Source: Geotalea uraniireducens Rf4 (GTDB lineage: Bacteria > Desulfobacterota > Desulfuromonadia > Geobacterales > Geobacteraceae). From it: a stretch of DNA of 32,000 nt. A program made the translations under genes and the position numbers. This document shows positions 1-20,454 of the stretch, piece after piece. The first letter of the stretch is position 1. Each line of letters begins with the position of its first letter. The stretch is taken from the NCBI RefSeq assembly GCF_000016745.1, contig NC_009483.1, forward strand, positions 570,001 through 602,000, given 5' to 3'. The notes under the pieces were generated by a model. It did no database searches, was not told the DNA's origin, and saw only the letters and a list, made by a program, of their open reading frames with translations.

Positions 1-1
1 C

Positions 2-2005
2 AATATCTACCCCGATGAGCATGGCACGTCGAATCTCGTCGATGCCCCGGCCTCTTCCTGTATATCTTGCCACAACCACGACACACCTGCACCGGAGGGT
101 TCATTTGCCGCGAGCTGTACCAGCTGTCATGGTCAGCCGCCGACGGCCACTTCGGCAGCGGCCGGTTACACCGGCAACGAGGCCGTGTCTGCGCACCTGC
201 GCCATACCGGTTACTCATACGGATGTAAGGAATGTCATTATTCCGGTGCCCCTTCCGACCTGCACAGGAATGGCAGTTTCAAGGACGTATTTACGACCTA
301 CACCTCAGGTATGATCGCGCGTAAATTTGGCGCTAATCCTCAGTATAATCCTGATAACACATGTTCCACAGTCTATTGCCACAGCAATGGTGCAGTACCA
401 CCCGTATATCAGACGCCCCCCAACTGGTTCGGCGGCAATATCACCACCTGCGATGCCTGCCACGAAGCATCACCGACAACCAATGCCCATGCGAAGCATA
501 TTGGCGCACCGAATAATTATAGCTGTGAGAACTGCCATGCGGCCACTGCAACCGGTTCGACGGTCATCAAAGACAAAACGAAGCACGCTAACGGCGGTAA
601 GGAAGTACAATTTTCCTCAACAGCGCTTCCATTCGTAAACACGGGAAGTTTCGCTTCAGCAACTTGTTCGGCTGTCTACTGCCACAGTGACGGGGCCGAA
701 ACCTATGCGACGCCTGTCTGGACAAACAGCAGCACTGGCGCGTGCGGCACCTGTCATGCCACAACAACGAGGGCTACCGCTGCTCACCAGCCGCACCTTT
801 CGACATCTGTGGCGTACGGTCCGAAACTCAACAATTTGCCGGTGGCTGCTGCCTGTAATAGCTGCCATGGACCCGATTACACGGTCAATCACATTAACGG
901 CTCCGTGCAGCTTGTTGCTGATACGTCATGTACTGCTTCTTGTCACAAAAATGGCCTCGGAACGTCAACTTGGACTTCCGGTATACGCCCAACCTGCGAA
1001 AGTTGCCATGCCGGCTTGCTTTCCGTGATTGATGGCAAAACTGCCCCGGATAAGGGCTTGTTCCAGACCTTAGGTCACGGCAAGAACTCCAGCAGTACCA
1101 GCGTGGTCATGAATTATGTCTGTACATCGTGTCATGATTCCAACGCTGCACATATCAATCCGCCGGTGCGTGACGGCAGGTTGCAGTCGAATCTTACCTC
1201 GTCTTTCAACGCACAATGTAACTACTGTCACAATGATTCGTTAAAGGTTACGACGTTATCCAAGCTGAATTTGCCATCTCACGTTCTGGATAAAAATGCT
1301 TCTCCTACAGCAAGCAGTTGTAGTCTCTGTCATGATCTCCATGGTTCATCCAATAGGTCTATGATCAGAGATATCATCAACGGTCAGTCGGTCAGCTTCA
1401 AAAACTCGACTTGTGTCACGACTTCTCTGAATGCCAATGGCGTCTACGCCGGTTTGTGTCAAGTATGTCATACGCTTACCAGGTTCTATAAAAACTCTGT
1501 TGCAGAAGGCAGTCACTATACAACGGGTTGTCTGAGTTGCCACAAGCATACCGATAATACTAATGGCCAACCTGCGGATGCTGCTTTCTATGCCTTCAAG
1601 CCGACTGGCAACTGCAACGATTGTCATGGCTATCCGCCGGTTCAGAGCCTTGACGGCATTGCTGTCCAGGGTAATTACTCCGGTGCCCGGCTCAATGATT
1701 ACATCGGTGGTGGCGGTGCCCATAGTGTTGCCGGTCATATACCGAAAACCGTCAAGCCAGCGGATGGCTGGGCTAACTGTGCCAAGTGTCACTACGGTGC
1801 AAATGATGCTATTCACATGACACGTGATTACACGAAACCAAGCAACATAAGGGTTGCTGTTGATCCGCAGTACAAGTTCAACGCGGCACTGCAGATCAGG
1901 TACAGCAGCAACCAGGTTGATCCGCCGCTTGTGAATTCAACTGGCACCTGTTCTAATGTCAGCTGTCACTTCCAGCCGACACCACGCTGGAGTACGATAA
2001 GGTAG
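2..2005 (+). CDS. multiheme c-type cytochrome, 5'-truncated at window edge
   Basis: The frame of the listed 185..2005 ORF stays open back to nt 2 (NIYPDEHG..CISCH..CTSCH), so the GTG at 185 is not the true start. I count ~19 heme-attachment-type motifs (15 CXXCH, 3 CX4CH, 1 CX3CH). The last ~125 aa (CNDCHGYPP..GGGGAH..CSNVSCHF..PRWST) are homologous to the C-terminus of the 2750..6595 product. A strong terminator follows. Confidence 0.9.
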   Translation, partial: NIYPDEHGTSNLVDAPASSCISCHNHDTPAPEGSFAASCTSCHGQPPTATSAAAGYTGNEAVSAHLRHTGYSYGCKECHYSGAPSDLHRNGSFKDVFTTYTSGMIARKFGANPQYNPDNTCSTVYCHSNGAVPPVYQTPPNWFGGNITTCDACHEASPTTNAHAKHIGAPNNYSCENCHAATATGSTVIKDKTKHANGGKEVQFSSTALPFVNTGSFASATCSAVYCHSDGAETYATPVWTNSSTGACGTCHATTTRATAAHQPHLSTSVAYGPKLNNLPVAAACNSCHGPDYTVNHINGSVQLVADTSCTASCHKNGLGTSTWTSGIRPTCESCHAGLLSVIDGKTAPDKGLFQTLGHGKNSSSTSVVMNYVCTSCHDSNAAHINPPVRDGRLQSNLTSSFNAQCNYCHNDSLKVTTLSKLNLPSHVLDKNASPTASSCSLCHDLHGSSNRSMIRDIINGQSVSFKNSTCVTTSLNANGVYAGLCQVCHTLTRFYKNSVAEGSHYTTGCLSCHKHTDNTNGQPADAAFYAFKPTGNCNDCHGYPPVQSLDGIAVQGNYSGARLNDYIGGGGAHSVAGHIPKTVKPADGWANCAKCHYGANDAIHMTRDYTKPSNIRVAVDPQYKFNAALQIRYSSNQVDPPLVNSTGTCSNVSCHFQPTPRWSTIR

Positions 2006-2033: not shown

Positions 2034-2065
2034 ATGGCCGGGGGCATCCCCCGGCCATTTTCTTT
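2034..2065 (+). terminator. Rho-independent terminator after cytochrome gene 1
   Basis: Perfect 11-bp GC-rich stem ATGGCCGGGGG (2034-2044) / CCCCCGGCCAT (2048-2058) with loop CAT, followed by TTTCTTT. It lies 29 nt after the stop at 2005. Confidence 0.8.
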
Positions 2066-2749: not shown

Positions 2750-5700
2750 ATGAAGAAAAAGCTGGGGTGGGGATCTGCTGGTAAGTTGTTTTTGTTTCTG
2801 GCTTTGTCGTTCGTCAATCTTTGCGTGACTGCTGGGAATGCAAGTGCCGCGCTGGATTGTAATGGCTGTCATGGTACTTCGAGCCCAACCGATTATCGGC
2901 CGGTTGATGCCGGATATCGAAATATTACAACAGGTGGCATCCAGGGTAACCATCGGACGCATATGGCTTTGACGTCCAATCAGTCAAGCTGTACGCCTTG
3001 TCACAATAGTGCCGGATTTACCAGCAGCCACCGTGACGGCAAGATCAGCTTCCAGGCAAACATCAACGGGTCGCCGCTTGCCGCTACTTACGGTAAAGGC
3101 GTATTCGTCAATCAGACATCGAACCCGGTGATGACTAATGCAAACTGTTCGAATGCCAACTGTCACTTCGAATCTATTACCCCCACATGGGGTTCGTCAG
3201 CGGCTTCGACAAACTGTGATACCTGCCATGCGGCACAGCCGTCTACCCTGAGTCATCCAAAGCACGTGACCGCTTTTGGCGGAACAGCTTCCTGTATAAA
3301 ATGCCATCCGAATCGGACCACCTTCGAGCATGCGACCAGCGCCGGTAATGCCGGCCGCAATATAGCCGTGACGATCGGCAGCTATGCCGGCTCCAACTAT
3401 AATTACCTCCCCAGTCAGTCGGCCACCCGGACAGCCGGTAGCTGTTCCGCCCTTTATTGCCACAGCTCCGGTCAGTCGGCAACCGGTGGAGCACTTACCG
3501 GTGGTGATTATGTGACCGCAACCTGGGATAGTGCTGCGAGCGGCGCCTGCGGCACCTGTCATAAAAACACTGCGGCGACCATCGCCAGCGGCAGCCACAA
3601 CAAACACCTTAATGCAGCCGGTTCGGCCGGATGCGTAGACTGTCACGTCGGCGTAACAGGCGACGGCGTATCCTACAACTCGACCCGTCACGTCGATACC
3701 TTCATCAACGTCACCGGCGCATACAGCCAGGGCAAGGCAAGCACCCCCGGCAACGGCTACGGCACCTGTTCGGCCGCCGCCTGTCACGACAACGGTACCG
3801 GCACCAAAGTGATAACCCCGACCTGGGGCAACACGGCAGCCGCCTGTACAGCCTGTCATGCATTGCAGCCCGCAACCGGCAGCCACACCAAACATCTCAG
3901 CACCACACAGTACACCAAGGCAAATTGCGCCTCCTGTCATGCCAGCGCAGTGGAAGGCTCCAATGGCGGCACAGGGCACCTTGACGGAAACATAGACGCA
4001 ATCAATGGCTATCCCGCCAACAAGACCAAGGGGAGCGCCTACGCAACATGTAATGCCGCATACTGCCACAGCCCCGGCCAGTCGGTCACCGGCGGCGCCC
4101 TGACGACCGAGTATGCCACCATCACCTGGGGCGGCACCGCAGCCTGCGGCAGCTGTCACAACGCCACCAAGGCGACCATCGCCAGCGGCAGCCACAACAA
4201 ACACCTTAATGCAGCCGGTTCGGCCGGATGCGTAGACTGTCACGTCGGCGTAACAGGCGACGGCGTATCCTACAACTCGACCCGTCACGTCGATACCTTC
4301 ATCAACGTCACCGGCGCATACAGCCAGGGCAAGGCAAGCACCCCCGGCAACGGCTACGGCACCTGTTCGGCCGCCGCCTGTCATGACAACGGTACCGGCA
4401 CCAAAGTGATAACCCCGACCTGGGGCAACACGGCAGCCGCCTGTACAGCCTGTCATGCATTGCAGCCCGCAACCGGCAGCCACACCAAACATCTCAGCAC
4501 CACACAGTACACCAAGGCAAATTGCGCCTCCTGTCATGCCAGCGCAGTGGAAGGCTCCAATGGCGGCACAGGGCACCTTGACGGAAACATAGACGCAACC
4601 AACGGCTATCCCGCAAACAAGACCAAGGGGAGCGCCTATGCAACATGTAATGCCGCATACTGCCACAGCCCCGGCCAGTCGGTCACCGGCGGCGCCCTGA
4701 CGATCGAGTATGCCACCATCACCTGGGGCGGCACCGCAGCCTGCGGCAGCTGTCACAATGCCACCAAGGCGACCATCGCCAGCGGCAGCCACAACAAACA
4801 CCTTAATGCAGCCGGTTCGGCCGGATGCGTAGACTGTCACGTCGGCGTAACAGGCGACGGCGTATCCTACAACTCGACCCGTCACGTCGATACCTTCATC
4901 AACGTCACCGGCGCATACAGCCAGGGCAAGGCAAGCACCCCCGGCAACGGCTACGGCACCTGTTCGGCCGCCGCCTGTCACGACAACGGTACCGGCACCA
5001 AAGTGATAACCCCGACCTGGGGCAACACGGCAGCCGCCTGTACAGCCTGTCATGCATTGCAGCCCGCAACCGGCAGCCACACCAAACATCTCAGCACCAC
5101 ACAGTACACCAAGGCAAATTGCGCCTCCTGTCATGCCAGCGCAGTGGAAGGCTCCAATGGCGGCACAGGGCACCTTGACGGAAACATAGACGCAATCAAT
5201 GGCTATCCCGCCAACAAGACCAAGGGGAGCGCCTATGCAACATGTAATGCCGCATACTGCCACAGCCCCGGCCAGTCGGCCACCGGCGGCGCCCTGACGA
5301 CCGAGTACGCCACCGTCACCTGGGGCGATACAGTTGGCTGCGGCAGCTGTCACAACGCCACTTCTGCAACATTGAACAGCGGCACCCATGCCAAGCATCT
5401 TGCCGTCGATGCTAATTGCGCCAACTGTCATGCCGGCGCTGTGGGCAATGGTGTCTCATACAACTCCACCAATCATGTCAACTCTCTTATTGAGGTTTCG
5501 GCTGGTGCATACAACGGAGCCGGCACTCCCGGCAACGGCTACGGTTCCTGTTCAACTACACCTTGTCACTTCTCCAGCACGGGCAGCGTAACATGGGGTG
5601 CTGATACGGTTACGACTTCCTGCGAGAAGTGTCACGGCTCTGCGAATACTGCCCAGCCTGCTGCAGGCGGCACATTCAAGTCCACGGCAGGTGCTACCGC

Positions 5701-6595
5701 CAACACCGATGTCAAGGTCGGTGCCCACGTCGCCCACCTTGGCTCCAATACGACTGCAGGTCACCAGATTACGGTGAACCTCTCCTGCGCCGACTGTCAT
5801 AAATCTGTGAGCAGCTTCAATGATGCTAATCACATCCACGCCGGCCAGAGTGTCGGGGAGGCTGGTATGGCCTGGAGTGCACTCGCTGCTACTGGTGGCG
5901 TAACGCCCAGCTACGACCCGGTCACCGGCAACTGTACCAACTACTGCCACGGTGCAACACTTGCCGATGGCACAACAGCGACCAAGCAGACAGCCAAATG
6001 GAACCAGCCGCTTCTTTCAGGGGCTCCTGCACTGACCAACTGCGGTGTCTGTCACGGTAACCCACCGGCAACAAGCGGCCATATCTCAAATCCGGTCGGT
6101 CCGGTTTATGTAGCGCAAAACTCCTGTAACGGCTGTCACAGCGATGTAAATACCGATGGTATGACCATTGCTGACAAAACAATGCATGCGAACGGTGTTG
6201 TTGACGGCGGCAGCTGTAATGCTTGTCACGGTTACCCGCCGGTCAAGGATATGGCAGGTCTCGGTATACAAAACAGCTACACCACTGCCCGCCTCCAGAA
6301 CTACTCCGGTGGTGGCGGAGCACACAATGTTCCCGGTCATATCGCTCTCATGGCGAAGGCAACCGACTCCTGGTCGCCATGCTTGATCTGCCATCCATCT
6401 GCCAGCCATAACCAGGGTAGCGGCGTCTTTGTTCCGGGTAATGTTCAGGTTTCGGTTGATTCTAAATTCAAGTTTGACTCGAAGCTGCCGATTACGTATA
6501 CTGGCAACCAAACTGGGTCCCCTCTCTCTACCGGTTCATGTTCAAACGTAAGCTGTCACTTCAAAGCATCGCCTAAGTGGAGTACAGAAAGATAA
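2750..6595 (+). CDS. giant exported multiheme c-type cytochrome (~35 heme-type motifs, CX4CH..CXXCH Geobacter-type modules)
   Basis: AGGAG at 2739-2743 lies 6 nt before ATG 2750. The N-terminus is a Sec-type signal peptide (MKKKLGWGSAGKLFLFLALSFVNLCVTAGNASA). I count 24 CXXCH, 10 CX4CH and 1 CX3CH (CTNYCH, nt 5933-5950). Composition is rich in Gly/Ala/Thr/Ser/Asn/Cys/His, and the gene contains a 597-bp tandem repeat array. Confidence 0.95.
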   Translation: MKKKLGWGSAGKLFLFLALSFVNLCVTAGNASAALDCNGCHGTSSPTDYRPVDAGYRNITTGGIQGNHRTHMALTSNQSSCTPCHNSAGFTSSHRDGKISFQANINGSPLAATYGKGVFVNQTSNPVMTNANCSNANCHFESITPTWGSSAASTNCDTCHAAQPSTLSHPKHVTAFGGTASCIKCHPNRTTFEHATSAGNAGRNIAVTIGSYAGSNYNYLPSQSATRTAGSCSALYCHSSGQSATGGALTGGDYVTATWDSAASGACGTCHKNTAATIASGSHNKHLNAAGSAGCVDCHVGVTGDGVSYNSTRHVDTFINVTGAYSQGKASTPGNGYGTCSAAACHDNGTGTKVITPTWGNTAAACTACHALQPATGSHTKHLSTTQYTKANCASCHASAVEGSNGGTGHLDGNIDAINGYPANKTKGSAYATCNAAYCHSPGQSVTGGALTTEYATITWGGTAACGSCHNATKATIASGSHNKHLNAAGSAGCVDCHVGVTGDGVSYNSTRHVDTFINVTGAYSQGKASTPGNGYGTCSAAACHDNGTGTKVITPTWGNTAAACTACHALQPATGSHTKHLSTTQYTKANCASCHASAVEGSNGGTGHLDGNIDATNGYPANKTKGSAYATCNAAYCHSPGQSVTGGALTIEYATITWGGTAACGSCHNATKATIASGSHNKHLNAAGSAGCVDCHVGVTGDGVSYNSTRHVDTFINVTGAYSQGKASTPGNGYGTCSAAACHDNGTGTKVITPTWGNTAAACTACHALQPATGSHTKHLSTTQYTKANCASCHASAVEGSNGGTGHLDGNIDAINGYPANKTKGSAYATCNAAYCHSPGQSATGGALTTEYATVTWGDTVGCGSCHNATSATLNSGTHAKHLAVDANCANCHAGAVGNGVSYNSTNHVNSLIEVSAGAYNGAGTPGNGYGSCSTTPCHFSSTGSVTWGADTVTTSCEKCHGSANTAQPAAGGTFKSTAGATANTDVKVGAHVAHLGSNTTAGHQITVNLSCADCHKSVSSFNDANHIHAGQSVGEAGMAWSALAATGGVTPSYDPVTGNCTNYCHGATLADGTTATKQTAKWNQPLLSGAPALTNCGVCHGNPPATSGHISNPVGPVYVAQNSCNGCHSDVNTDGMTIADKTMHANGVVDGGSCNACHGYPPVKDMAGLGIQNSYTTARLQNYSGGGGAHNVPGHIALMAKATDSWSPCLICHPSASHNQGSGVFVPGNVQVSVDSKFKFDSKLPITYTGNQTGSPLSTGSCSNVSCHFKASPKWSTER
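3157..5279 (+). repeat. segmental duplication copy A (partner 7114..9236)
   Basis: It aligns with 7114-9236 at a constant offset of 3957 nt. I found only three mismatches by eye: T3253/C7210, T4704/C8661 and T5236/C9193. Confidence 0.95.
3581..5279 (+). repeat. in-frame tandem repeat, period 597 bp (199 aa), about 2.85 copies
   Basis: Unit starts fall at 3581, 4178 and 4775, checked against the identical out-of-frame ATGs at 3631, 4228 and 4825. Copies differ at only about 7 positions per unit. The array degrades after 5279. Confidence 0.95.
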
Positions 6596-6607
6596 AATCT
6601 GAGTCAT

Positions 6608-6633
6608 GGGAGGGGGTAGTTCCCACCCCTCCC
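6608..6633 (+). other. GC-rich intergenic hairpin without U-tract between cytochrome genes 2 and 3
   Basis: GGGAGGGG (6608-6615) pairs with CCCCTCCC (6626-6633) over a 10-nt loop. No T-run follows, so it may be an mRNA stability or attenuation element rather than a full terminator. Confidence 0.3.
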
Positions 6634-6691
6634 TATTGAGGATGCCAGTATGAGAATACAATCGTCTTTAGTTATAGGTAAGGAGTCAAGT

Positions 6692-9600
6692 ATGAAGACA
6701 TTTTACAGCGCAGGATATTTCAGAAAACCGGCTTTATTCTTGCTGTTGTCCTTGATGACTATATTCGTCTTTGCAGCTTCGGCGTTTGCGTTAACCGGCA
6801 ACAAGATTGATCAGTGTTATGATTGTCACGGCAGTCCGGGCGATAACCGGCCATTGGACGCCGTATACAGGGATATGACAAGTGGCGCGTTCCCCGGTAA
6901 CCATCGGACGCATATGGCTTCGACGGCTACTGCTTCATCGTGTGTCCCCTGTCATAACAACAGTGGATTTACGATCGACCACCGTAACGGAAAGATCCAG
7001 TTCGCGGCGAATGTCAACACATCGCCTGCAACCGGTAAGTACATGAAGTACGGCTTCCAGGCTTTCACCTCCAGTCAGGTTTCCAGCCCTACCCTCGGCA
7101 CATGTGCCACCGTCAACTGTCACTTCGAATCTATTACCCCCACATGGGGTTCGTCAGCGGCTTCGACAAACTGTGATACCTGCCATGCGGCACAGCCGTC
7201 TACCCTGAGCCATCCAAAGCACGTGACCGCTTTTGGCGGAACAGCTTCCTGTATAAAATGCCATCCGAATCGGACCACCTTCGAGCATGCGACCAGCGCC
7301 GGTAATGCCGGCCGCAATATAGCCGTGACGATCGGCAGCTATGCCGGCTCCAACTATAATTACCTCCCCAGTCAGTCGGCCACCCGGACAGCCGGTAGCT
7401 GTTCCGCCCTTTATTGCCACAGCTCCGGTCAGTCGGCAACCGGTGGAGCACTTACCGGTGGTGATTATGTGACCGCAACCTGGGATAGTGCTGCGAGCGG
7501 CGCCTGCGGCACCTGTCATAAAAACACTGCGGCGACCATCGCCAGCGGCAGCCACAACAAACACCTTAATGCAGCCGGTTCGGCCGGATGCGTAGACTGT
7601 CACGTCGGCGTAACAGGCGACGGCGTATCCTACAACTCGACCCGTCACGTCGATACCTTCATCAACGTCACCGGCGCATACAGCCAGGGCAAGGCAAGCA
7701 CCCCCGGCAACGGCTACGGCACCTGTTCGGCCGCCGCCTGTCACGACAACGGTACCGGCACCAAAGTGATAACCCCGACCTGGGGCAACACGGCAGCCGC
7801 CTGTACAGCCTGTCATGCATTGCAGCCCGCAACCGGCAGCCACACCAAACATCTCAGCACCACACAGTACACCAAGGCAAATTGCGCCTCCTGTCATGCC
7901 AGCGCAGTGGAAGGCTCCAATGGCGGCACAGGGCACCTTGACGGAAACATAGACGCAATCAATGGCTATCCCGCCAACAAGACCAAGGGGAGCGCCTACG
8001 CAACATGTAATGCCGCATACTGCCACAGCCCCGGCCAGTCGGTCACCGGCGGCGCCCTGACGACCGAGTATGCCACCATCACCTGGGGCGGCACCGCAGC
8101 CTGCGGCAGCTGTCACAACGCCACCAAGGCGACCATCGCCAGCGGCAGCCACAACAAACACCTTAATGCAGCCGGTTCGGCCGGATGCGTAGACTGTCAC
8201 GTCGGCGTAACAGGCGACGGCGTATCCTACAACTCGACCCGTCACGTCGATACCTTCATCAACGTCACCGGCGCATACAGCCAGGGCAAGGCAAGCACCC
8301 CCGGCAACGGCTACGGCACCTGTTCGGCCGCCGCCTGTCATGACAACGGTACCGGCACCAAAGTGATAACCCCGACCTGGGGCAACACGGCAGCCGCCTG
8401 TACAGCCTGTCATGCATTGCAGCCCGCAACCGGCAGCCACACCAAACATCTCAGCACCACACAGTACACCAAGGCAAATTGCGCCTCCTGTCATGCCAGC
8501 GCAGTGGAAGGCTCCAATGGCGGCACAGGGCACCTTGACGGAAACATAGACGCAACCAACGGCTATCCCGCAAACAAGACCAAGGGGAGCGCCTATGCAA
8601 CATGTAATGCCGCATACTGCCACAGCCCCGGCCAGTCGGTCACCGGCGGCGCCCTGACGACCGAGTATGCCACCATCACCTGGGGCGGCACCGCAGCCTG
8701 CGGCAGCTGTCACAATGCCACCAAGGCGACCATCGCCAGCGGCAGCCACAACAAACACCTTAATGCAGCCGGTTCGGCCGGATGCGTAGACTGTCACGTC
8801 GGCGTAACAGGCGACGGCGTATCCTACAACTCGACCCGTCACGTCGATACCTTCATCAACGTCACCGGCGCATACAGCCAGGGCAAGGCAAGCACCCCCG
8901 GCAACGGCTACGGCACCTGTTCGGCCGCCGCCTGTCACGACAACGGTACCGGCACCAAAGTGATAACCCCGACCTGGGGCAACACGGCAGCCGCCTGTAC
9001 AGCCTGTCATGCATTGCAGCCCGCAACCGGCAGCCACACCAAACATCTCAGCACCACACAGTACACCAAGGCAAATTGCGCCTCCTGTCATGCCAGCGCA
9101 GTGGAAGGCTCCAATGGCGGCACAGGGCACCTTGACGGAAACATAGACGCAATCAATGGCTATCCCGCCAACAAGACCAAGGGGAGCGCCTACGCAACAT
9201 GTAATGCCGCATACTGCCACAGCCCCGGCCAGTCGGTCACCGGCGGCGCCCTGACGACCGAGTATGCCACCATCACCTGGGGCGGCACCGCAGCCTGCGG
9301 CAGCTGTCACAACGCCACCAAGGCGACCATCGCCAGCGGCAGCCACAACAAACACCTTAACGCAGCCGGTTCGGCCGGTTGCGTAGACTGTCACGTCGGC
9401 GTAACAGGCGATGGCGTATCTTACAACTCGACCCGTCACGTCGATACCTTCATCAACGTCACCGGCGCATACAGCCAGGGCAAGGCAAGCACCCCCGGCA
9501 ACGGCTACGGCACCTGTTCGGCCGCCGCCTGTCATGACAACGGTACCGGCACCAAGGCGGTAACCCCGACCTGGGGCGACACGGCAGCCGCCTGTACCGC

Positions 9601-10831
9601 CTGTCATATACTTCAGCCCGCAACCGGCAGTCACACCAAGCACCTCACGGGTCTTGCGGGTAAATTCTTTGCAAACGCTGTCTGCGCTGATTGCCATAAC
9701 GGCGCAGTCCAGGGTACATCAGTCAACGCAAACCATCTTGATAGCAACATCGATGTCTACAAGACAACAGCCGGCGACCTCGGCTATTCCGCAAATAAGC
9801 TCAAGGGGAGCCCCTACGCATCCTGTACCACAACCTACTGCCATTCAAACGGTAGGGGGGGGTATCAGTCGCAACTCTGGGGTGCTACCAATCTCAACTG
9901 TTCATCATGTCACCCGAATCTTACCGGCGCCCATGGCAAGCATGTGAAGGACCTTCTCACTACAGTGACCTTCTACGCCTATACGTCAAACAAATCGGCA
10001 GGCGACGACACATTGGCCGGATGGGGATATAAGTTCGGTTGCGCCAACTGCCATCCTACGGCTGCTACAAGTCATCTGAACGGTTCCATTGATGTCCAGG
10101 TTAATAACGTAGCCGGTGTAGGCACACTGAGATCCAAGAACCCAGTGGGTGCTGCGGTGAATGTGGTTGTCACAGGATCGAATGTTACCTGTACGGCAGT
10201 TTATTGCCATAGCGACGGTAAGGCCACCCCAACCGGCACCAGTCCTAACTGGTATGCGACCTTCCCGGCCGGCAGTGACCGTTGCGCACAATGCCATGGC
10301 AACTCGCCGACAACCGGTGCCCATCAGGCCCATGTGGTTGGCATCCACCAGGATAACATCTTCAATGGCGCAAGCGGCAAACTGCTAGCTGGTACTACCA
10401 ACTCAAGCCATGGCGATGCCACCCAGTCCACCACCATAAACTGTAATATCTGTCATAGCCTGACCGTCACATCGGCCCGCAATGATGAGAACCTGGCCTG
10501 TATCGGTTGTCACTCTGCAAAGACAAACAAGGCATCCATCGCTTATCTGGGTAACCATGTCAATGGCCAGGTCAATTTCAGCTTCGCAGCGGTAGCTGTA
10601 AAATCCAGGGCACAGGTCAGAGATGGCAGCTTCGACAGCTACTCAGGTGCATGGGGACGGAATGCCAATTCTTATAAGGCTGGCGCCACACCGTATGACG
10701 CCGCGAAGAAAGCCCTTGACAATACCATGTGGAGTGCTGGAAACTGCTCGAACATAGCTTGCCACAACGGCAAGACGGTTAACTGGAACGATACGACGGT
10801 TACTTGTGAAAGCTGTCACACCGGCCTGTAA
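6692..10831 (+). CDS. giant exported multiheme c-type cytochrome (~38 heme-type motifs), paralog of 2750..6595
   Basis: The ORF opens at 6650, but ATG 6692 has the same AGGAGTCAAG RBS-spacer context as gene 2 and starts a signal peptide (MKTFYSAGYFRKPALFLLLSLMTIFVFAASAFA). I count 26 CXXCH and 12 CX4CH. The gene contains a 597-bp repeat array of about 3.5 copies. Confidence 0.93.
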   Translation: MKTFYSAGYFRKPALFLLLSLMTIFVFAASAFALTGNKIDQCYDCHGSPGDNRPLDAVYRDMTSGAFPGNHRTHMASTATASSCVPCHNNSGFTIDHRNGKIQFAANVNTSPATGKYMKYGFQAFTSSQVSSPTLGTCATVNCHFESITPTWGSSAASTNCDTCHAAQPSTLSHPKHVTAFGGTASCIKCHPNRTTFEHATSAGNAGRNIAVTIGSYAGSNYNYLPSQSATRTAGSCSALYCHSSGQSATGGALTGGDYVTATWDSAASGACGTCHKNTAATIASGSHNKHLNAAGSAGCVDCHVGVTGDGVSYNSTRHVDTFINVTGAYSQGKASTPGNGYGTCSAAACHDNGTGTKVITPTWGNTAAACTACHALQPATGSHTKHLSTTQYTKANCASCHASAVEGSNGGTGHLDGNIDAINGYPANKTKGSAYATCNAAYCHSPGQSVTGGALTTEYATITWGGTAACGSCHNATKATIASGSHNKHLNAAGSAGCVDCHVGVTGDGVSYNSTRHVDTFINVTGAYSQGKASTPGNGYGTCSAAACHDNGTGTKVITPTWGNTAAACTACHALQPATGSHTKHLSTTQYTKANCASCHASAVEGSNGGTGHLDGNIDATNGYPANKTKGSAYATCNAAYCHSPGQSVTGGALTTEYATITWGGTAACGSCHNATKATIASGSHNKHLNAAGSAGCVDCHVGVTGDGVSYNSTRHVDTFINVTGAYSQGKASTPGNGYGTCSAAACHDNGTGTKVITPTWGNTAAACTACHALQPATGSHTKHLSTTQYTKANCASCHASAVEGSNGGTGHLDGNIDAINGYPANKTKGSAYATCNAAYCHSPGQSVTGGALTTEYATITWGGTAACGSCHNATKATIASGSHNKHLNAAGSAGCVDCHVGVTGDGVSYNSTRHVDTFINVTGAYSQGKASTPGNGYGTCSAAACHDNGTGTKAVTPTWGDTAAACTACHILQPATGSHTKHLTGLAGKFFANAVCADCHNGAVQGTSVNANHLDSNIDVYKTTAGDLGYSANKLKGSPYASCTTTYCHSNGRGGYQSQLWGATNLNCSSCHPNLTGAHGKHVKDLLTTVTFYAYTSNKSAGDDTLAGWGYKFGCANCHPTAATSHLNGSIDVQVNNVAGVGTLRSKNPVGAAVNVVVTGSNVTCTAVYCHSDGKATPTGTSPNWYATFPAGSDRCAQCHGNSPTTGAHQAHVVGIHQDNIFNGASGKLLAGTTNSSHGDATQSTTINCNICHSLTVTSARNDENLACIGCHSAKTNKASIAYLGNHVNGQVNFSFAAVAVKSRAQVRDGSFDSYSGAWGRNANSYKAGATPYDAAKKALDNTMWSAGNCSNIACHNGKTVNWNDTTVTCESCHTGL
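7114..9236 (+). repeat. segmental duplication copy B (partner 3157..5279)
   Basis: See copy A. The copy-specific variants DAINGYP / DATNGYP / DAINGYP occur in the same order in both genes. Confidence 0.95.
7538..9640 (+). repeat. in-frame tandem repeat, period 597 bp (199 aa), about 3.5 copies
   Basis: Unit starts fall at 7538, 8135, 8732 and 9329. The fourth copy carries several substitutions (for example GGATGCG to GGTTGCG near 9379) and diverges after about 9640. Confidence 0.95.
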
Positions 10832-10850: not shown

Positions 10851-10871
10851 GGTTCACCTCATGGGTGGACC
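10851..10871 (+). other. weak intergenic hairpin between cytochrome genes 3 and 4
   Basis: GGTTCACC (10851-10858) pairs with GGTGGACC (10864-10871) with one G-U pair and loop TCATG, followed by GGGTTTC. The U-tract is poor. Confidence 0.25.
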
Positions 10872-10927
10872 GGGTTTCATTCAAATCGTTCCTGTTTGAT
10901 ACAATTCCATTACGAGGTGAAGTCACC

Positions 10928-13900
10928 ATGGGAAAGAAGATAGCAAAAAAAATTCGAGGCATGAATCTGGGCGCCAAGATTAGCCTGATAACGCTGGCGA
11001 CCCTGCTGGTCTCTGTGTTCATGTATGAGGGATGGTATAAACCGTATTCAGTACACGCGGTTGCGAAGACCTACAACATAGACGATAGTACCGGTGTTAC
11101 TATCGCGACAGGTGTTACGACTAATACGGTCAGTGGCACAAACCCTACATCAGCTACGCCAACGCCTGATGTGAATGAGATGAAAACGGTTGCGGCGACC
11201 ACTACCTCAAACAGAACAACCGGCACTTACACGGCTGGGGCTACAATGCTTGAGTCGATCTACAACACTGCCTATGCAACTTCAACGACAGTGACCGGCA
11301 CGTCTTATTTTGGAAGACTTAGAGATGGTTCTGGTGGATATACCGTTGGTTTCCAGCTGTTTTATGTTGCCGCAAACGGAACAAAGACAAACTTTACCGG
11401 TGCTCAGGCTACACAGGCACTTACTTCTGGCGCAAGCGCTGATTATACCGTAAGTCTTGCCGCTCAGTCTGCTACGGTGCCTGCTGGCTCCAAGCTTGGT
11501 ATACGTATAATTTACGTTTCTGGTGCTTCAACTGACGCACGTGTATATTACGGCAGCACAGCTTCGTCAACCAGCACTCCTGGCGGGGTTGTAACTGTAG
11601 ATGAGGTTGCTGCTGACGCCACTAAGCCAACAGTGACGGCCTTTACCGTGCCATCCACCTCAAGTTCACTGACTATTTCCGGGATTACCTTCACAGCATC
11701 CGACAATGTCGGTGTAACAGGTTACCTGATCAACGAGAGCGCAACCCCTCCTGCGGCCGCTTCCATTACTTCCAGTACCGCACCAACTTCCTACACAGCC
11801 GCCACAGAGGGTACAAAAACCCTGTACGCCTGGGTCAAGGACGCCGCCGGTAACGTTTCCAATGTCTATACCGGTCAGACGTGCACAATTACCCTGCCTG
11901 ACACCACCAAGCCGACGGTTACGGCATTTACCGTGCCTGCCACTTCAAGCTCACTGACTATTTCCGGGATTACCTTCACCGCATCCGACAATGTGGGCGT
12001 AACCGGTTACCTGATAAACGAGAGCGCCACCCCCCCTGCGGCCGCTTCCATTACATCCGGTACCGCACCAACTTCCTATACCGCTGCCACAGAGGGTACA
12101 AAAACCCTGTACGCCTGGGTCAAGGATGCAGCGGGGAACGTTTCCAATGTCTACACCAGTCAGACCTGCACCATAACATTAGCTGATACGACCAAGCCAA
12201 CTGTGACGACTTTTACCGTACCTGCCACCTCTAGCTCGCTGACTATTACCGGGATTACCTTCACCGCATCCGACAACGTGGGCGTAACCGGTTATCTGAT
12301 CAACGAGAGCGCTACACCACCCGCAGCGGCGGCGATTACCCTCGGCACTGCACCAACTTCCTACACCGCTGCTTCAGCCGGGGCAAAAACCCTTTACGCC
12401 TGGGTCAAGGACGCCGCCGGGAACGTGTCAAACGCCTTCACCGGGCGGGCGTGTACCATTACCCTGGACACGACCAAACCGACGGTAACGGCCTTTACCG
12501 TGCCTGCCACCTCAAGCTCCCTGACTATTTCCGGGATTATCTTCACTGCATCCGACAATATCGGCGTAACCGGTTACCTGATCAACGAGAGCGCCACCCC
12601 CCCTGCGGCCGCGGCGATTACTCTCGGCACTGCGCCAACTTCATACACCGCAGGTTCAGCCGGGACAAAAACCCTGTACGCCTGGGTCAAGGATGCCAAT
12701 GGGAATGTTTCCAATGCCTATGCTGGTCAGTCCTGTACAATTACTGTAGTCATAACCAGCCCGCTCATGCATAACGCCGCCAATGTCAACCCGACAAACA
12801 CAAAAGGGTACGGTGCCGACTGGGGCTCGACCTTCACCTGCGCCACCTGCCACGCTGAGAACACCAGCAACGTAAAAATCGTCGCTACCACTGTTGCCAC
12901 CCCGAATGGTAACCGAAACGTCGTGTTTACCCGGATGACCTCGACCTCCAACGCCCTGAACGGCGTGTTCGGTAACGACAATCGTACTTACGCCGGTAAC
13001 GGTACAGGCGGCTCTTCCAACATCTGCGAGGTCTGTCACCGGAAGACAACGTTCCATCGCTACAGTGCCAACGCCCCGGACACGACCCACTACAACAACA
13101 AGCTTTGTCTTACATGCCATCCCCACGGGGCCGGCTTCAAGGGTAGTGGTCATACCGTGCCATATTATGCAACAAGCACCGGCCACACCGGCTGTGCCAC
13201 CGGCATCGGTTGCCACACCAACAGCACTCCCGGAGGAACCTATCCAACTGCAGGCACACCGCCTGATTGTCAAGCCTGCCACACCAAGGGCGATCCCACA
13301 ACTGCCGGCATCGGTTGTGGCAGCTGTCACGGTGCGGCCGGTGGTACGGGCGAGCCGAATGGCACTGTCCATCCTGATGCAGTGGGGAGTCACCCCAAGC
13401 ATACTGCTCTTACCACTTGTACCAACTGTCATGATGTCGGCGGTGATGTCGGCGGCAATGCTGACCATGGCAGAGGAAACAGGGATACGAATCCAAAGAC
13501 CGTTAATCTTGCCGCAGGCCTTGGGTGGAATGGCACCAACACTAACTGTACCACGGCCAGCTGCCATGCGAACCCATATAGTACAACTGGGTCCATAACA
13601 TCTCCTGCCTGGGGCACGATCGCAGGTTGTTCTGCCTGTCATACCGGAACCGGCCTGTTCCAGGCAAACGGAGCTCCTAATACCGGTGGTCATGCAATCC
13701 ATATGACAGCAGGCGCTGCATGTGGTGACTGTCACACCGGTGCTGTATCAGGTACAAGCGGTGGAGCAAATCATGCCAATGGCGTGGTCAATGTGGCGAA
13801 CGGCTACAACGGTGGTTTGCCTGTCACCAAGCATGCCGCTGGTTCTGGATACTCTACCTGTACGGCAGCTACATGTCACGCCAACCCATACGCTTCCGGA

Positions 13901-15418
13901 TCTATTACCACAAATGTGTGGAGCCCGACCAGCAGCGGATGCGGAGCTTGTCATAAAAATGATGCTACCAACGGCAACCTTGGTGCATTTGTTGCGTATT
14001 CGTCTCCCTCAACACAGCTTGGCCCCAAAACCGCCAGTCATGAGGAACACCTGAATTATAATCGTTACGTTTGCGCTGATTGTCATTCAGGCGCCGTGTC
14101 CGGATCGACCGGTGGTGCCGCCCATGGCAATAGCGTGGTTAATGTAATCCAGTATGCAAGCACTATAACCAAGCACCAATCTCCGTTTACGTATCTAGCA
14201 AACGGCTGTACTACGTCATGTCATGGTGCTGCAACATGGGGTGCCACGCTTGGGTGTATTAATTGCCATTCAGCTTCAATTACTCGTACAAAAGGGCGTG
14301 CAGGCAAGACATTGGCAGCTGTTACGACTGAATTCGGCCTGGCTTGGGGACACAAGAAGACCGGACGGGGCGCGGTAACCGACGCAGACTGTATCGTTTG
14401 CCACCTGGAGGGTAATTTTACCACTAAAAGAACGTCCAAATTCCACGCGAACGGCAACATCGACCTGCGTGACCCGGATGTCCAAGGGGAAACGCCAATT
14501 ACCGATATATCCGGCGCGGCGTTTACCTTCCAGCGCTTCTCAACATCCTATGCCGCCGGTTCCAGAACTACTACTGTTAACAACACAATTGCCAACGTAA
14601 TTTCCCAGAAATTCTGCATGAAATGCCATGACTCAGGTGGGGCAGCCAATACGACAGCTCGGACAACGGGTGGTACAAATGCCATGCCGTTTGGCGGCAT
14701 CGCTTTGGGTACAAACTACACCGCGGCGAATAACGCAATTGGAACCCAAGGTACTATTGACGTCGCGACACAGCTTGCCACCACTAACGCGTCGTTCCAC
14801 CCGGTACTCGGGCCGCGCAATGCCGGGTATCCGACTCCCAGCTTGATGAAAGCGCCATATAACAACTTCACCCGGACCGCCGGCACCAAGGCGAACAGTG
14901 TTGTGATCAACTGCTTCGACTGTCACAACACGCCGACACCAATGACGCTTCGTACCGTTTCCGCACACGGTAATGCGGTAACGCTGCGCGGCAATGCAAC
15001 GGCAAGCGGCAGTTCGCCGAATGCGACAACTGGAGCCACGCTGTGTCTTGCCTGCCATGCGGTGCTGGCAAACAGCTATCATGGGGTTGGCTCTGCAATA
15101 GGGTCCAGTACCAACAGCGGGATGACCGCCACCATGAGCTACGGCTGCAACATGTGCCACGGCGCTTCATACAACACTGCAACGGTGCGTCCGGTACGCG
15201 CTCAGGATGTCCATGGCTACCCGAGCACGGTCAGTGGCGCGACGACCTATAAAAAGGCCTTTATCCGAGGCAATACTTCCGAGGGGTATATAACAGCTCA
15301 TCAGCCAAAGAGCATTACAACTCCTGCGTATAGCGGTACTGCTTCCTGTACCGGCATGGGCGGTACTATCTGCGGCGGTTCCCGTACTAAAACGTACACC
15401 CCGGGGGGTGTCTATTAA
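10928..15418 (+). CDS. membrane-anchored fusion protein: N-terminal TM helix, Thr/Ser-rich beta-sandwich-like region, four Ig-like repeats, C-terminal ~20-heme cytochrome domain
   Basis: The ORF opens at GTG 10865, but ATG 10928 is preceded by GAGGTGA (10914-10920) and yields MGKKIAKKIRGMNLGAKISLITLATLLVSVF, a basic N-terminus followed by a TM segment. The C-terminal ~900 aa carry 16 CXXCH, 2 CX4CH, 1 CX3CH and 1 CX5CH (CATGIGCH, nt 13193-13216). A strong terminator follows. Confidence 0.9.
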   Translation: MGKKIAKKIRGMNLGAKISLITLATLLVSVFMYEGWYKPYSVHAVAKTYNIDDSTGVTIATGVTTNTVSGTNPTSATPTPDVNEMKTVAATTTSNRTTGTYTAGATMLESIYNTAYATSTTVTGTSYFGRLRDGSGGYTVGFQLFYVAANGTKTNFTGAQATQALTSGASADYTVSLAAQSATVPAGSKLGIRIIYVSGASTDARVYYGSTASSTSTPGGVVTVDEVAADATKPTVTAFTVPSTSSSLTISGITFTASDNVGVTGYLINESATPPAAASITSSTAPTSYTAATEGTKTLYAWVKDAAGNVSNVYTGQTCTITLPDTTKPTVTAFTVPATSSSLTISGITFTASDNVGVTGYLINESATPPAAASITSGTAPTSYTAATEGTKTLYAWVKDAAGNVSNVYTSQTCTITLADTTKPTVTTFTVPATSSSLTITGITFTASDNVGVTGYLINESATPPAAAAITLGTAPTSYTAASAGAKTLYAWVKDAAGNVSNAFTGRACTITLDTTKPTVTAFTVPATSSSLTISGIIFTASDNIGVTGYLINESATPPAAAAITLGTAPTSYTAGSAGTKTLYAWVKDANGNVSNAYAGQSCTITVVITSPLMHNAANVNPTNTKGYGADWGSTFTCATCHAENTSNVKIVATTVATPNGNRNVVFTRMTSTSNALNGVFGNDNRTYAGNGTGGSSNICEVCHRKTTFHRYSANAPDTTHYNNKLCLTCHPHGAGFKGSGHTVPYYATSTGHTGCATGIGCHTNSTPGGTYPTAGTPPDCQACHTKGDPTTAGIGCGSCHGAAGGTGEPNGTVHPDAVGSHPKHTALTTCTNCHDVGGDVGGNADHGRGNRDTNPKTVNLAAGLGWNGTNTNCTTASCHANPYSTTGSITSPAWGTIAGCSACHTGTGLFQANGAPNTGGHAIHMTAGAACGDCHTGAVSGTSGGANHANGVVNVANGYNGGLPVTKHAAGSGYSTCTAATCHANPYASGSITTNVWSPTSSGCGACHKNDATNGNLGAFVAYSSPSTQLGPKTASHEEHLNYNRYVCADCHSGAVSGSTGGAAHGNSVVNVIQYASTITKHQSPFTYLANGCTTSCHGAATWGATLGCINCHSASITRTKGRAGKTLAAVTTEFGLAWGHKKTGRGAVTDADCIVCHLEGNFTTKRTSKFHANGNIDLRDPDVQGETPITDISGAAFTFQRFSTSYAAGSRTTTVNNTIANVISQKFCMKCHDSGGAANTTARTTGGTNAMPFGGIALGTNYTAANNAIGTQGTIDVATQLATTNASFHPVLGPRNAGYPTPSLMKAPYNNFTRTAGTKANSVVINCFDCHNTPTPMTLRTVSAHGNAVTLRGNATASGSSPNATTGATLCLACHAVLANSYHGVGSAIGSSTNSGMTATMSYGCNMCHGASYNTATVRPVRAQDVHGYPSTVSGATTYKKAFIRGNTSEGYITAHQPKSITTPAYSGTASCTGMGGTICGGSRTKTYTPGGVY
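11621..12750 (+). repeat. four diverged tandem coding repeats of 285/285/282/~280 bp (94-95 aa Ig-like units)
   Basis: The TKPTVT(A/T)FTVP(S/A)TSSSLTI(S/T)GI(T/I)FTASDN(V/I)GVTGYLINESATPPAAA..KTLYAWVKDA(A/N)GNVSN unit starts at 11621, 11906, 12191 and 12473. Many synonymous differences separate the copies, so the repeats are old, unlike the 597-bp arrays. Confidence 0.85.
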
Positions 15419-15474
15419 TCATCCAGAAACTGGTGACTTGAGTAATAATTGCTTTCCTGCATTGTTATAACAAC

Positions 15475-15508
15475 ATGCCCCCCTTGGACTAAAGGGGGGC
15501 ATTTTTTT
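15475..15508 (+). terminator. Rho-independent terminator after cytochrome gene 4
   Basis: Perfect 11-bp stem ATGCCCCCCTT (15475-15485) / AAGGGGGGCAT (15492-15502) with a 6-nt loop, then a T-run through 15508. Confidence 0.85.
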
Positions 15509-15533
15509 GAATCACAATGGAGATATCTTCAGC

Positions 15534-16907
15534 ATGAAACCAAATATTGCCTATAGCCTCGCCCACGCTCTGCTTCTTTGCGTACTTGCAGTCACAATTG
15601 GATGCGATAGCTATCATACGGGTACTAACCTAGAGACTGCTTTCAGGTACACGACCGCCGTCTCGGAGCGGGCCGGCATCCTCGAGATATTAGAACCGGC
15701 ACTGCTTGACTCGGCATCGGCAGCAGAGAGTGACGGATTGACGTCGTACTTTAATGAGACGGGGACTGGTGCTGCTTCCGTCGTCAAAACAGGACCATCA
15801 TCTTTCCGGGTGCTTCACAAGCACAAGGTCAGTGGCGAATACGCCGGGGTCGAGTCTGTTACCTTAAGCCCGGACGGCCGCCGGTTAGCCTTTGTCATTC
15901 CTGAAAACGGCAAGTTCCGTATGGTCATCGATGGCAGAATGGGGAGGCCATTCGAGCAGATCGGGTCACCGGTCTTCACGCCGGATTCGCGTCATCTTGC
16001 CTATAAAGTGAAATCAGGTGCACTCTGGCGGCTGATTGTCGACGAGAAGCTGGCGGATGAGCGTTTTCTTGTCTATGGAGAACCTCGCATGAGCAAGGGA
16101 CTGTCCAGGATCATCATTATGGAAAAGGCATCGGAACAGAGTCCGTACGCCATCGTTGCCTATACGTCAGACCTGAAACGGACGGTGATCAAGGAGATTC
16201 CGGCCCAGGACGTCTATTTTGATCAGGACGTAATGACAGCTGCTGCAATAGTTGTAAAGGACAACAAAAAGCGGGTGGTTGTCTTCACCCTGAGGGAACC
16301 GGGTACGGTTCGTGAGGGTGCGGAATTTGATGAGATCACGCAACTGGTTTTTGATAAGACCGGCAGATCCCTAGCGTATGTAGGCCAAAAAGGTGCTGAG
16401 AAATATCTTGTTCTGGATGGTCAAATCGAGCCGTTGTCCGGTGCGAGTCTGGGAGAACACCCGGTAATCAGCCCGAACCAGAAAAGCCTTGGCACAGTGC
16501 TGGTGACCGATTTGGTGTATTATCATCAGGCGTTTATGCCACAGGCCTCCGACGAGAAGAAGTATGATGCGATAAACGAACTGACGTTCGCGCCGGATGG
16601 GCGCCGGCATGTGTATACGGCCGAAAAAAAAGGGCGTTGTTTCGTGGTAGTCAACGGCAAGGAAGGGCCTCCGTTTGACCGCGTCGTCTCGCCTCGATTC
16701 AGCCCTGACGGGCGGTTCTTGACCTATCGTGCTCGCCAGGACGGCAAACGATTTCTCGTGGTTGCGGATGCAGACGGCCGAATGATCAGGCGGCACCCGG
16801 CATTTGACATGGTGTTCGAGCAGGTTTACACAGCCGATGGGAAATCTGTGGCATATGGTGTGAAGGATGGAAACAAACTGGCATGGCGGGTGGAAAAGCT
16901 CGATTAG
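15534..16907 (+). CDS. PD40/TolB-like beta-propeller repeat protein, probable lipoprotein
   Basis: The TTG at 15507 lies inside the terminator T-tract. ATG 15534 has GGAGA 10 nt upstream and gives MKPNIAYSLAHALLLCVLAVTIGC, a signal peptide with a non-canonical lipobox. About 7 repeats of the type (S/T/A)PDG(R/K)xxA(F/Y) follow, for example SPDGRRLAFV, TPDSRHLAYKV, APDGRRHVYTA, SPDGRFLTYRA and TADGKSVAYGV. Confidence 0.8.
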   Translation: MKPNIAYSLAHALLLCVLAVTIGCDSYHTGTNLETAFRYTTAVSERAGILEILEPALLDSASAAESDGLTSYFNETGTGAASVVKTGPSSFRVLHKHKVSGEYAGVESVTLSPDGRRLAFVIPENGKFRMVIDGRMGRPFEQIGSPVFTPDSRHLAYKVKSGALWRLIVDEKLADERFLVYGEPRMSKGLSRIIIMEKASEQSPYAIVAYTSDLKRTVIKEIPAQDVYFDQDVMTAAAIVVKDNKKRVVVFTLREPGTVREGAEFDEITQLVFDKTGRSLAYVGQKGAEKYLVLDGQIEPLSGASLGEHPVISPNQKSLGTVLVTDLVYYHQAFMPQASDEKKYDAINELTFAPDGRRHVYTAEKKGRCFVVVNGKEGPPFDRVVSPRFSPDGRFLTYRARQDGKRFLVVADADGRMIRRHPAFDMVFEQVYTADGKSVAYGVKDGNKLAWRVEKLD

Positions 16908-17089
16908 ATGTAGCCTTTAAATTTGCATAAATATGGCCCGTCACTGAGGACATGGAGTCATACAAAGAACTCTCTTAATAATGGCGGTCGGAATAACACA
17001 GAGCGCTAATCTTCAGCCAGATTTTATTCCTTCCCTTGAATGTGAAAACAGAAAGAAATGCCCGGATGTGACATCAAGGAGAATTGCCA

Positions 17090-18334
17090 ATGCTGCACTG
17101 CAATGATTCAGTAAATTTCAAGGTATTGCTGGCAATCCTCATTGTGTCGGCATGTCTGCGGCTATGGGGGGCTTTTGACATTACCGGCTATACGGGTGAT
17201 GAGTCGTTTCATGTGCCGTCCGCCATCAGCTTGGGACAGTATGGCACTCCCCTTTCATCCAACTGGACGCATCCTCCAGCCGGGGCGCTGATTCTGCTCG
17301 GGACGATTACACTCTTTGGCGATAACCCGGTGGGCTGGAGGATTGGCGGCATTGTCTTTGGTACCGTATCAGTGGGACTACTGTATCTGGTTGCTTTCCG
17401 GTTGTACCGCAATGAAATGGCTGCGCTGCTGGCGGCGACGCTGTTGGCGATGGATCCGTTTCATATCTATTTTTCCCGGACGACCTTTATGGAAATCCCG
17501 GTGCTCTGCTTCTTTCTCATGTTTCTCTATTTCATGCTGGAGTACGCAGAAGATGGGAGCAGGTGGTCGCTCCCATTGGCCGGGGTTGCGCTGGGGCTGA
17601 CGGCGGCGACGAAGAGTTATTTTGTCTGCAGCATGCTGTTGGTGATTGGCTATGCCTGGTGGAAAAAGTGGCAGCAAAAGGACGGCCAAGCCACCCATGT
17701 TTTAGATTTTCTCTGCTATTTGCTCTGTCTGCCCGTTGCCATCTATCTTCTTTCCTATTACCACTGGTTCGGCAGGGGATTCACTCTGCAGGAGTTTTTC
17801 CAGATGCGGGGGGATGCGCTGTGGACGTTACGCAATATCACCATTGATTCGTTCGAAAACAAATGGTTCCTGGAGGTGGGGGGGCAGCCGTGGGAGTGGT
17901 TCGTAAAGCCGATAGTGTTTGGTTATCAGTTTGAAACCAACCGCTATCTGCTGGAGATCAATAATTTCCCCATACGGCTGTTTTCGTTGTTCTCGCTGAT
18001 TGCGCTCACTGTCCACGGCTGGCGGAGGCGACTAGCTCCACTCCTTGTGCCGCCGATATTGTTCGCGAGCGTCTACCTGCTCTTCCTCCTGTTGAATCGC
18101 CCCATGTCGAGCAGCTCTGCGCTGGTCGTGCTCCCTTTTGCATATCTTGCCCTGGCCCGGGCGGTTGTGTTGCTGGAGGAACAGTATTGCAGGGCGTGCA
18201 GATTGAGTCTCATCGCTCTCGTATTGATTGTGTTCTGGGAGGCTTACCTCTATCCCCTGGCGACGGGAAGAGTTGTTTCCGACTTTTTATATTCACCGAT
18301 ACTCTCTAGTACAAAAATAATGCGGATGCAGTGA
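17090..18334 (+). CDS. GT-C fold polytopic glycosyltransferase, PMT/GT39-like (polyprenyl-phosphate-sugar dependent)
   Basis: AAGGAGA lies 7 nt before ATG 17090. The protein has many hydrophobic segments. The first-loop motif YTGDESFHVPSA resembles the Asp-Glu motif of protein O-mannosyltransferases, and WTHPPAG resembles their HPPLxK motif. Confidence 0.7.
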   Translation: MLHCNDSVNFKVLLAILIVSACLRLWGAFDITGYTGDESFHVPSAISLGQYGTPLSSNWTHPPAGALILLGTITLFGDNPVGWRIGGIVFGTVSVGLLYLVAFRLYRNEMAALLAATLLAMDPFHIYFSRTTFMEIPVLCFFLMFLYFMLEYAEDGSRWSLPLAGVALGLTAATKSYFVCSMLLVIGYAWWKKWQQKDGQATHVLDFLCYLLCLPVAIYLLSYYHWFGRGFTLQEFFQMRGDALWTLRNITIDSFENKWFLEVGGQPWEWFVKPIVFGYQFETNRYLLEINNFPIRLFSLFSLIALTVHGWRRRLAPLLVPPILFASVYLLFLLLNRPMSSSSALVVLPFAYLALARAVVLLEEQYCRACRLSLIALVLIVFWEAYLYPLATGRVVSDFLYSPILSSTKIMRMQ

Positions 18335-18939: not shown

Positions 18940-18987
18940 TGAACGTTCCCAATGTCTCGACGTTTTTCTGATAGGGGAACGGGGCCG

Positions 18988-20403: not shown

Positions 20404-20454
20404 TGGTGCTCCACTGGCGACTCAGTTCAAAATCTGTATTGATTGGCAAACATA

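Follow-up and report, generated by a model that had tools for sequence, protein, structure and literature searches.

The window analyzed here (32,000 nucleotides (nt) of the Geotalea uraniireducens Rf4 chromosome, NC_009483.1, positions 570,001 to 602,000) opens on four consecutive genes for giant multiheme cytochromes, which we call A to D (Table 1). Two neighbors in this series, B and C, share a nearly identical internal tract of 2.1 kb (hereafter, the block) within otherwise diverged sequences, and we consider it likely that recurrent intrachromosomal gene conversion has homogenized this core of two old tandem paralogs. All four proteins score far above the cut-offs for the CxxxxCH/CxxCH cytochrome families TIGR01904 (291 bits for B and 342 bits for C, against a cut-off of 27) and PF09698 (86 and 146 bits, respectively). 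Among the matches listed in a large protein database, B and C are the only carriers of the block, the next relative being 54% identical, and exact-protein look-ups of both (with three start variants) returned no other contig.

Table 1 Features of the cytochrome locus, in window coordinates.
Feature	Coordinates	Strand	Description
Gene A	1-2005	+	CxxxxCH/CxxCH cytochrome cut by the window start; frame open from nt 2; Pfam and NCBIfam matches
Hairpin	2034-2058	+	Strong, terminator-like; follows A
Gene B	2750-6595	+	1281 amino acids (aa); 35 heme motifs; signal peptide; B-type head and tail
Block copy 1	3157-5279	+	In B; 7 complete tri-motif modules, 21 heme motifs
Lead, copy 1	3157-3544	+	One module; differs from copy 2 only at 3253, where the T of B is derived
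B array	3545-5335	+	Three 597-nt units, starting at 3545, 4142 and 4739
Non-homogenized spacer	5280-7113	+	Diverged fourth unit, B tail, B-C intergenic region, C head
Gene C	6692-10831	+	1379 aa from ATG; AGGAG ribosome-binding site; 38 heme motifs; ortholog of Gd1592
Block copy 2	7114-9236	+	In C
C array	7502-9647	+	Units at 7502, 8099 and 8696, plus the half unit C4
Gene D	10865-15418	+	1517-aa cytochrome; same operon-like cluster, outside the block

Alignment revealed directly that the two block copies correspond at a constant offset of 3957 nt and differ at just three positions (3253, 4704 and 5236, in the numbering of copy 1), an identity of 99.86% across 2123 nt; where they can be aligned, the flanks have nucleotide identities of 57% and 70%. 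If the flanking identity of ~70% applied throughout, the probability of finding at most three mismatches over this length would be ~1e-321. The differences at 3253 and 5236 are synonymous and that at 4704 exchanges Ile for Thr, with T in B and C in gene C at all three sites. For 3253 and 4704 the B state is the derived one (with a relative as outgroup, or by comparison among units), a sample too small to interpret. A first-pass annotation of this DNA had given the block coordinates, the offset and the three mismatches with their coding effects, all of which proved correct. The 5' edge of the block is abrupt, because ungapped identity is at a random level from position 3156 upstream, and it falls on the N-C-H of a CxxxxCH motif. 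The 3' edge, five residues past another such motif, is graded: the first mismatches are at 5280, 5308 and 5315 and then from 5328 onward, and identity is 76-92% for roughly the next 100 nt. Only 2123 nt of the 3957-nt period are near-identical, the other 1834 nt being at a random level when compared ungapped and 47-57% identical as protein where they can be aligned. Because only this part of the period is identical, a simple recent tandem segmental duplication is excluded. The first-pass annotation had left the choice between gene conversion and a recent segmental duplication undecided; conversion, the first of these, is the one that agrees with the dS contrast and flank orthologs described below.

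The block is built from a 388-nt unrepeated lead followed by three tandem 597-nt units, each of which encodes 199 aa with two modules and six heme motifs. Identity between the B and C units stops at about column 541 of the third unit. Beyond its array B has a diverged fourth unit (nucleotide identity 57%), and C has C4 (9293-~9647), a half unit homogenized in part, with 93-95% identity to the others; the arrays thus differ in length, with 3.0 units in B and 3.6 in C. The order of repeat variants (DAINGYP, DATNGYP, DAINGYP) is the same in both genes, as had been noted at the outset. At the protein level the block comprises exactly seven modules of 94-108 aa, each with the motif series CxxCH, CxxCH, CxxxxCH and each with three further histidines that are almost invariant (SHxxH plus one H). 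Three motifs and three extra histidines per module are what bis-histidine ligation would require, and heme binding is thus predicted from the motifs. A sequence search of the PDB with the block gave no meaningful match to a solved structure, and an AlphaFold2 model of the lead and first unit (from a 41-sequence alignment) reached a confidence (predicted local distance difference test) of only 54, which is unusable for structural claims. Antisense open reading frames (ORFs) run through both block copies (3197-5431, minus strand, 744 aa; 7154-9697, minus strand, 847 aa) and are most likely by-products of a GC-rich, stop-poor repeat, not genes.

A contrast of synonymous divergence inside and outside the block, which the first-pass annotation had suggested drawing, is extreme. 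Nei-Gojobori synonymous divergence (dS) was 0.004 within the block, 1.94 in the 5' flank (the head, where it is saturated) and 1.05 just downstream. Global protein alignment revealed that B and C are collinear homologs, with 46.5% identity end to end across their heads, 99.7% across the block and 57% over the next ~115 aa. B has a tail of 437 aa and C one of 530 aa; these are of different types, that of B being recognizable by the pattern CHGYPP...GGGG.H...CSNVSCHF. The N-terminal regions had been estimated by eye to be about half identical, which agrees with the measured value. The description of C-terminal regions of ~440 and ~530 aa that differ in architecture is right in length and type, although their first ~115 aa are homologous.

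To place this divergence in time we turned to the corresponding locus of Geotalea daltonii FRC-32 (L006; CP001390.1), which was reached via a member of the P0003 protein cluster; a scan of genome contigs with P0003 itself gave distant loci only. This locus encodes, in order, a histidine kinase, a sigma-54 response regulator, an NHL/Big protein and two cytochromes, Gd1041 (the ortholog of A, at 51% identity) and Gd1592 (the ortholog of C), without a B-type gene between them. Gd1592 (ACM19734.1, annotated as 'cytochrome c, 44 heme-binding sites') is syntenic with C. Its signal-peptide region is ~70% identical to that of C and 25-45% to that of B, and its tail is 49% identical to the C tail and 24% to the B tail. 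In RefSeq the start of this protein (WP_195892562.1, 1523 aa) is placed 69 residues further downstream than in ACM19734.1 (1592 aa), so that the signal peptide is lost; the RefSeq start is probably mis-called. A candidate older tract, in which B residues ~96-135 resemble Gd1592 (94% in one 20-aa window), was dropped because the region carries a motif conserved family-wide (FxNQTSxPx..CSxVNCHFE). On the B side, a more distant metagenome protein, P0005 (locus L003), has the length and architecture of B; its tail is 40% identical to the B tail and 27% to the C tail, and its head, at 46% identity to that of B and 39% to that of C, shows the same indel pattern as the B head. Judged by these alignments, orthology between B and P0005 is less firm than that between C and Gd1592. 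The B and C gene types are thus older than these lineages. Since the flanks of B and of C each have their own orthologs elsewhere, the paralogs are old and the block young, which argues for gene conversion.

These flank relationships also bear on a different history, in which a recent duplication of the whole gene was followed by exchange of heads and tails with other family members, so that the block is simply the untouched remnant. Tails are indeed modular in the family, the B type occurring also in A, Gd1041, P0005 and P0004 and the C type in Gd1592 and P0006. However, the heads are collinear homologs at 46.5% identity and not unrelated sequences, the head and tail of C are both orthologous to those of Gd1592, and the head and tail of B are both closest to P0005. 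Such swapping would need four replacements where conversion needs one event, and a search of the window for a near-identical donor of either tail found none. We therefore regard this history as highly improbable.

Comparison of the repeat units points in the same direction as the flanks. Gd1592 contains five 594-nt units (L006 10001-14779) that are 99-100% identical to one another and 64-67% identical to the units of the window; those of P0005 are 59-70% alike. Units thus group by genome (93-100% within the window, 99-100% within G. daltonii), and because they are alike within a genome and diverged between genomes, the arrays have been homogenized independently in each lineage.

We found much closer relatives by scanning metagenome contigs with C. 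Two contigs, L007 and L008, share 99.5% identity with one another and 95-97% with the window. At L007 a 55-kb contig physically begins, and its first base corresponds to window position 3157/7114 (i.e., the first base shared by the two block copies), which is the behavior expected of a graph assembler where two upstream contexts converge. L008 lies in a 354-kb contig and aligns from window nt 1, running through A, the B head, the lead, 0.6 unit, C4 and the C tail and then into D and the next two genes, E and F. Its positions 12517-14850 form a single ORF of 777 aa that lacks the B tail and the C head, and this protein has no entry in the large protein database. The switch falls where the relative's two units are identical for 128 nt, which suits either of two origins: collapse in a de Bruijn graph assembly, or a true deletion between the blocks that fused B to C. 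The expectation that the repeat would be a hotspot for deletion and assembly error was thus borne out, with one contig breaking at the first base of the block and the other passing from the B head through a shortened array into the C tail.

These contigs allowed the paralogs to be compared with an ortholog, in which the relative's two copies are not seen separately. The two window copies of the 388-nt lead differ at one site, against 7-8 sites between either copy and the relative; the B head differs from it at 12 of 407 sites. Full units are likewise 97-100% alike within the window and 93-96% identical to those of the relative. Because the window copies share the changes that have accumulated since the two strains split, the last homogenization post-dates that split. 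Should the relative, too, carry the block in two contexts (as the end of L007 implies), the shared boundary would predate the split and conversion would have recurred. Conversion is thus probably recurrent, and the earlier description of the process as 'ongoing' finds indirect support, through the boundary shared with the relative and the lead differences common to both window copies.

An alternative is that a single recent conversion or segmental copy-and-paste took place in the Rf4 lineage, with no continuing homogenization. That only three differences separate the copies and that the unit variants stand in the same order implies that the tract moved as one piece, as one such event would produce; L008 passes from the B head into the block without a fork, and the B tail and C head have not been found in the relative. 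However, L007 ends exactly at the first base of the block, as if two contexts converged in the relative too. The graded 3' edge and the intermediate identity of C4 suggest older tracts with other ends, and the mosaic likeness to Gd1592 and P0005 along the head and lead suggests earlier exchanges. On balance we find a one-off event unlikely.

A second locus shows the same pattern. The 4.23-Mb chromosome OW818669.1 (L010), reached via the family protein P0013, carries the same kinase and regulator upstream of cytochrome genes repeated in tandem every 3120 nt (14479-24392; 1109, 1002 and 1002 aa). Copies 2 and 3 share 1983 nt (16180-18162) with five mismatches between flanks that are 66-84% identical, and between copies 3 and 4 segments of 100% identity alternate with one of 77-93%. 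Overall, ~1.9-kb blocks that are 99.7-100% identical are interspersed with a ~1.2-kb segment of 66-93% identity, so that this locus appears to be an independent case of mosaic homogenization among three or more tandem paralogs. Comparison of adjacent paralogs at three further loci (L003, L004 and L009) revealed no near-identical tract.

The L010 mosaic, found in another complete genome, also speaks to whether the block was simply placed twice in the Rf4 assembly, or its unit numbers or variants mis-assigned. Short-read assemblies do fail in this region (as shown by a collapsed or chimeric L008, the break of L007 at the boundary, and contigs from the Logan collection that break in the repeats of D). 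However, the window derives from a single finished 5.14-Mb chromosome (PMC2825233), and the unique sequence at 5280-7113 can be placed only between two block copies. The copies moreover differ in length and at three sites, and the junctions of the block with the B head and with the C tail recur in independent metagenomes. An assembly artefact is accordingly the least credible of the explanations, and we give it almost no weight.

Taken together, the evidence favors recurrent gene conversion, which we picture as follows. One gene would have received its 'wire core' of seven three-heme modules from the other by non-reciprocal copying, and we infer that this occurred by RecA-type homologous recombination between direct repeats 3957 bp apart and that it was selectively neutral. 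Copying would have erased all synonymous divergence in the block, and it would not extend past this near-identical island, the heads and tails having diverged too far for recombination. The 597-nt units of each gene would also be kept 97-100% alike, with their number varying through unequal recombination. Only the repetitive core would thus be converted, leaving the signal peptide, the first module and the C-terminal domains specific to each gene.

Several points weigh against this interpretation. The copy number of the block and its three mismatches come from a single assembly, and the two-copy state of the relative is read from a contig end. Both the B head-block and the block-C tail junctions, as well as the fork at the 5' boundary, are present in L007/L008; the C head-block and block-B tail junctions have no second sighting outside the window assembly, and scans of genome-contig and metagenome-contig collections with the B tail found no relative. 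If L008 is truly one chimeric gene, recurrence is less well supported, and what remains is one recent event in the lineage of the window. The direction of transfer also gives conflicting signals. The first ~50 aa of the lead are 75-83% identical to the B-type P0005 and 20-40% to the C-type Gd1592, and this B-type start hints that C was the recipient; later parts of the block are closer to Gd1592, and the array tapers natively in C. Exchange in both directions over time is plausible.

A bolder extension, which we put forward tentatively and think rather doubtful, is that the block behaves as a self-perpetuating 'wire-core cassette', in which recombination would repeatedly homogenize, lengthen, shorten and re-join the core while the ends stay gene-specific. 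If so, variants in length and fusions would arise naturally from the cassette (among them the 777-aa ORF of L008), and it would explain part of the rapid turnover, the apparent 'recent duplications' and the high apparent mutation rates reported for Geobacter cytochromes; L010 would be a further instance of such a cassette.

The surroundings of B and C have further features. No terminator-like hairpin was found between B, C and D, where intergenic gaps are short, and because of this the three genes are probably one transcription unit. Just past the B stop codon (6608-6633) is a perfect 8-bp GC-rich hairpin (GGGAGGGG...CCCCTCCC) without a T-run, which could act in RNA stability or attenuation between the two genes. 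A search for sigma-54 promoters showed no excess over chance, and a TGGCAC at 2621 has the wrong spacing by eye. The AT-rich region between A (which has the same tail type as B) and B includes 313 nt (2068-2380), with short CGCAAAG repeats, that are missing from L008. D holds four 285-nt tandem repeats (11610-12744) of 95 aa each that are 80-88% identical and look non-heme and immunoglobulin-like; Logan short-read contigs of the same strain (L001 and L002, 100% identical to the window) end in or past this region.

Farther downstream, 15507-26036 contains a PD40 beta-propeller gene (E), a PMT_2 GT-C glycosyltransferase gene (F), three radical-SAM/SPASM genes, two B12-radical-SAM genes, and GT9 and GT2 glycosyltransferase genes. 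PD40 and PMT_2 recur at the homologous cluster of Geomonas oryzisoli (L009 21674-24356), and PMT_2/TPR recurs in L003 (22754-23846); such recurrent accessory genes may point to dedicated maturation or glycosylation. About 16 kb downstream of the giant cytochromes is a pair of genes for System II cytochrome c biogenesis, ResB-like (26161-27324, plus strand) and CcsA-like/Cytochrom_C_asm (27562-28389, plus strand), and a ResB gene also adjoins the G. oryzisoli cluster (L009 23029-24177). A role for this pair as a heme lyase dedicated to CxxxxCH motifs is only an idea.

Inter-paralog recombination thus appears to act on the heme-module core of giant 'wire' cytochromes. It could mislead orthology calls and the dating of duplications, and it would provide a ready route to altered wire length or swapped ends; short-read assemblies, for their part, collapse or fuse these genes. 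Surveys of Geobacter cytochromes describe poor conservation, many paralogs and fast change, and they treat duplication, gain and loss, and mutation rate, not gene conversion. A 2026 study of Geobacter cytochromes makes no mention of gene conversion or recombination, and a full-text literature search for gene conversion together with multiheme cytochromes found no paper. The process itself is known and ordinary, and the locus is a natural example and not a new principle: a clean new case in a family where conversion had not been noted.

RecA-dependent gene conversion between bacterial paralogs is familiar from tufA/tufB and the rRNA operons. B and C resemble these in having a near-identical tract between diverged flanks, with synonymous identity and paralogs that are closer to each other than to orthologs; however, conversion there spans the full length of essential housekeeping genes, whereas here the tract is a modular repeat core in accessory proteins of extracellular electron transfer. 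Bacterial surface proteins with near-identical tandem repeat arrays offer another parallel, in their long in-frame units (597 nt here), 97-100% identity, copy-number variation and collapse in short-read assemblies. Unlike those arrays, the one in B and C is shared in register by two genes, and each unit is predicted to bind six hemes. Family members of this size have been predicted to form long single-chain extracellular wires in Desulfuromonadia (PMC11492766), and these predicted wires, like GSU1996 with its concatenated c7 modules, chain small multiheme modules that are thought to have been duplicated and concatenated. The module of B and C differs in its CxxCH-CxxCH-CxxxxCH arrangement (TIGR01904), which matches no solved structure by sequence, and the B and C data would show recombination acting now, beyond its outcome. 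The closest described case in the group is that of the tandem omcB/omcC clusters of G. sulfurreducens, in which some proteins are 100% identical and OmcB shares 71% identity with OmcC (PMC4282303). There too (orfR-ombB-omaB-omcB with orfS-ombC-omaC-omcC, a '10-kb chromosomal duplication') identical segments lie beside diverged ones in tandem cytochrome loci, but whole genes are identical and the case has been called a duplication. In B and C, by contrast, the identical tract is internal to TIGR01904 genes with intragenic tandem units, and each gene's ends, where synonymous sites are saturated, have orthologs of their own.

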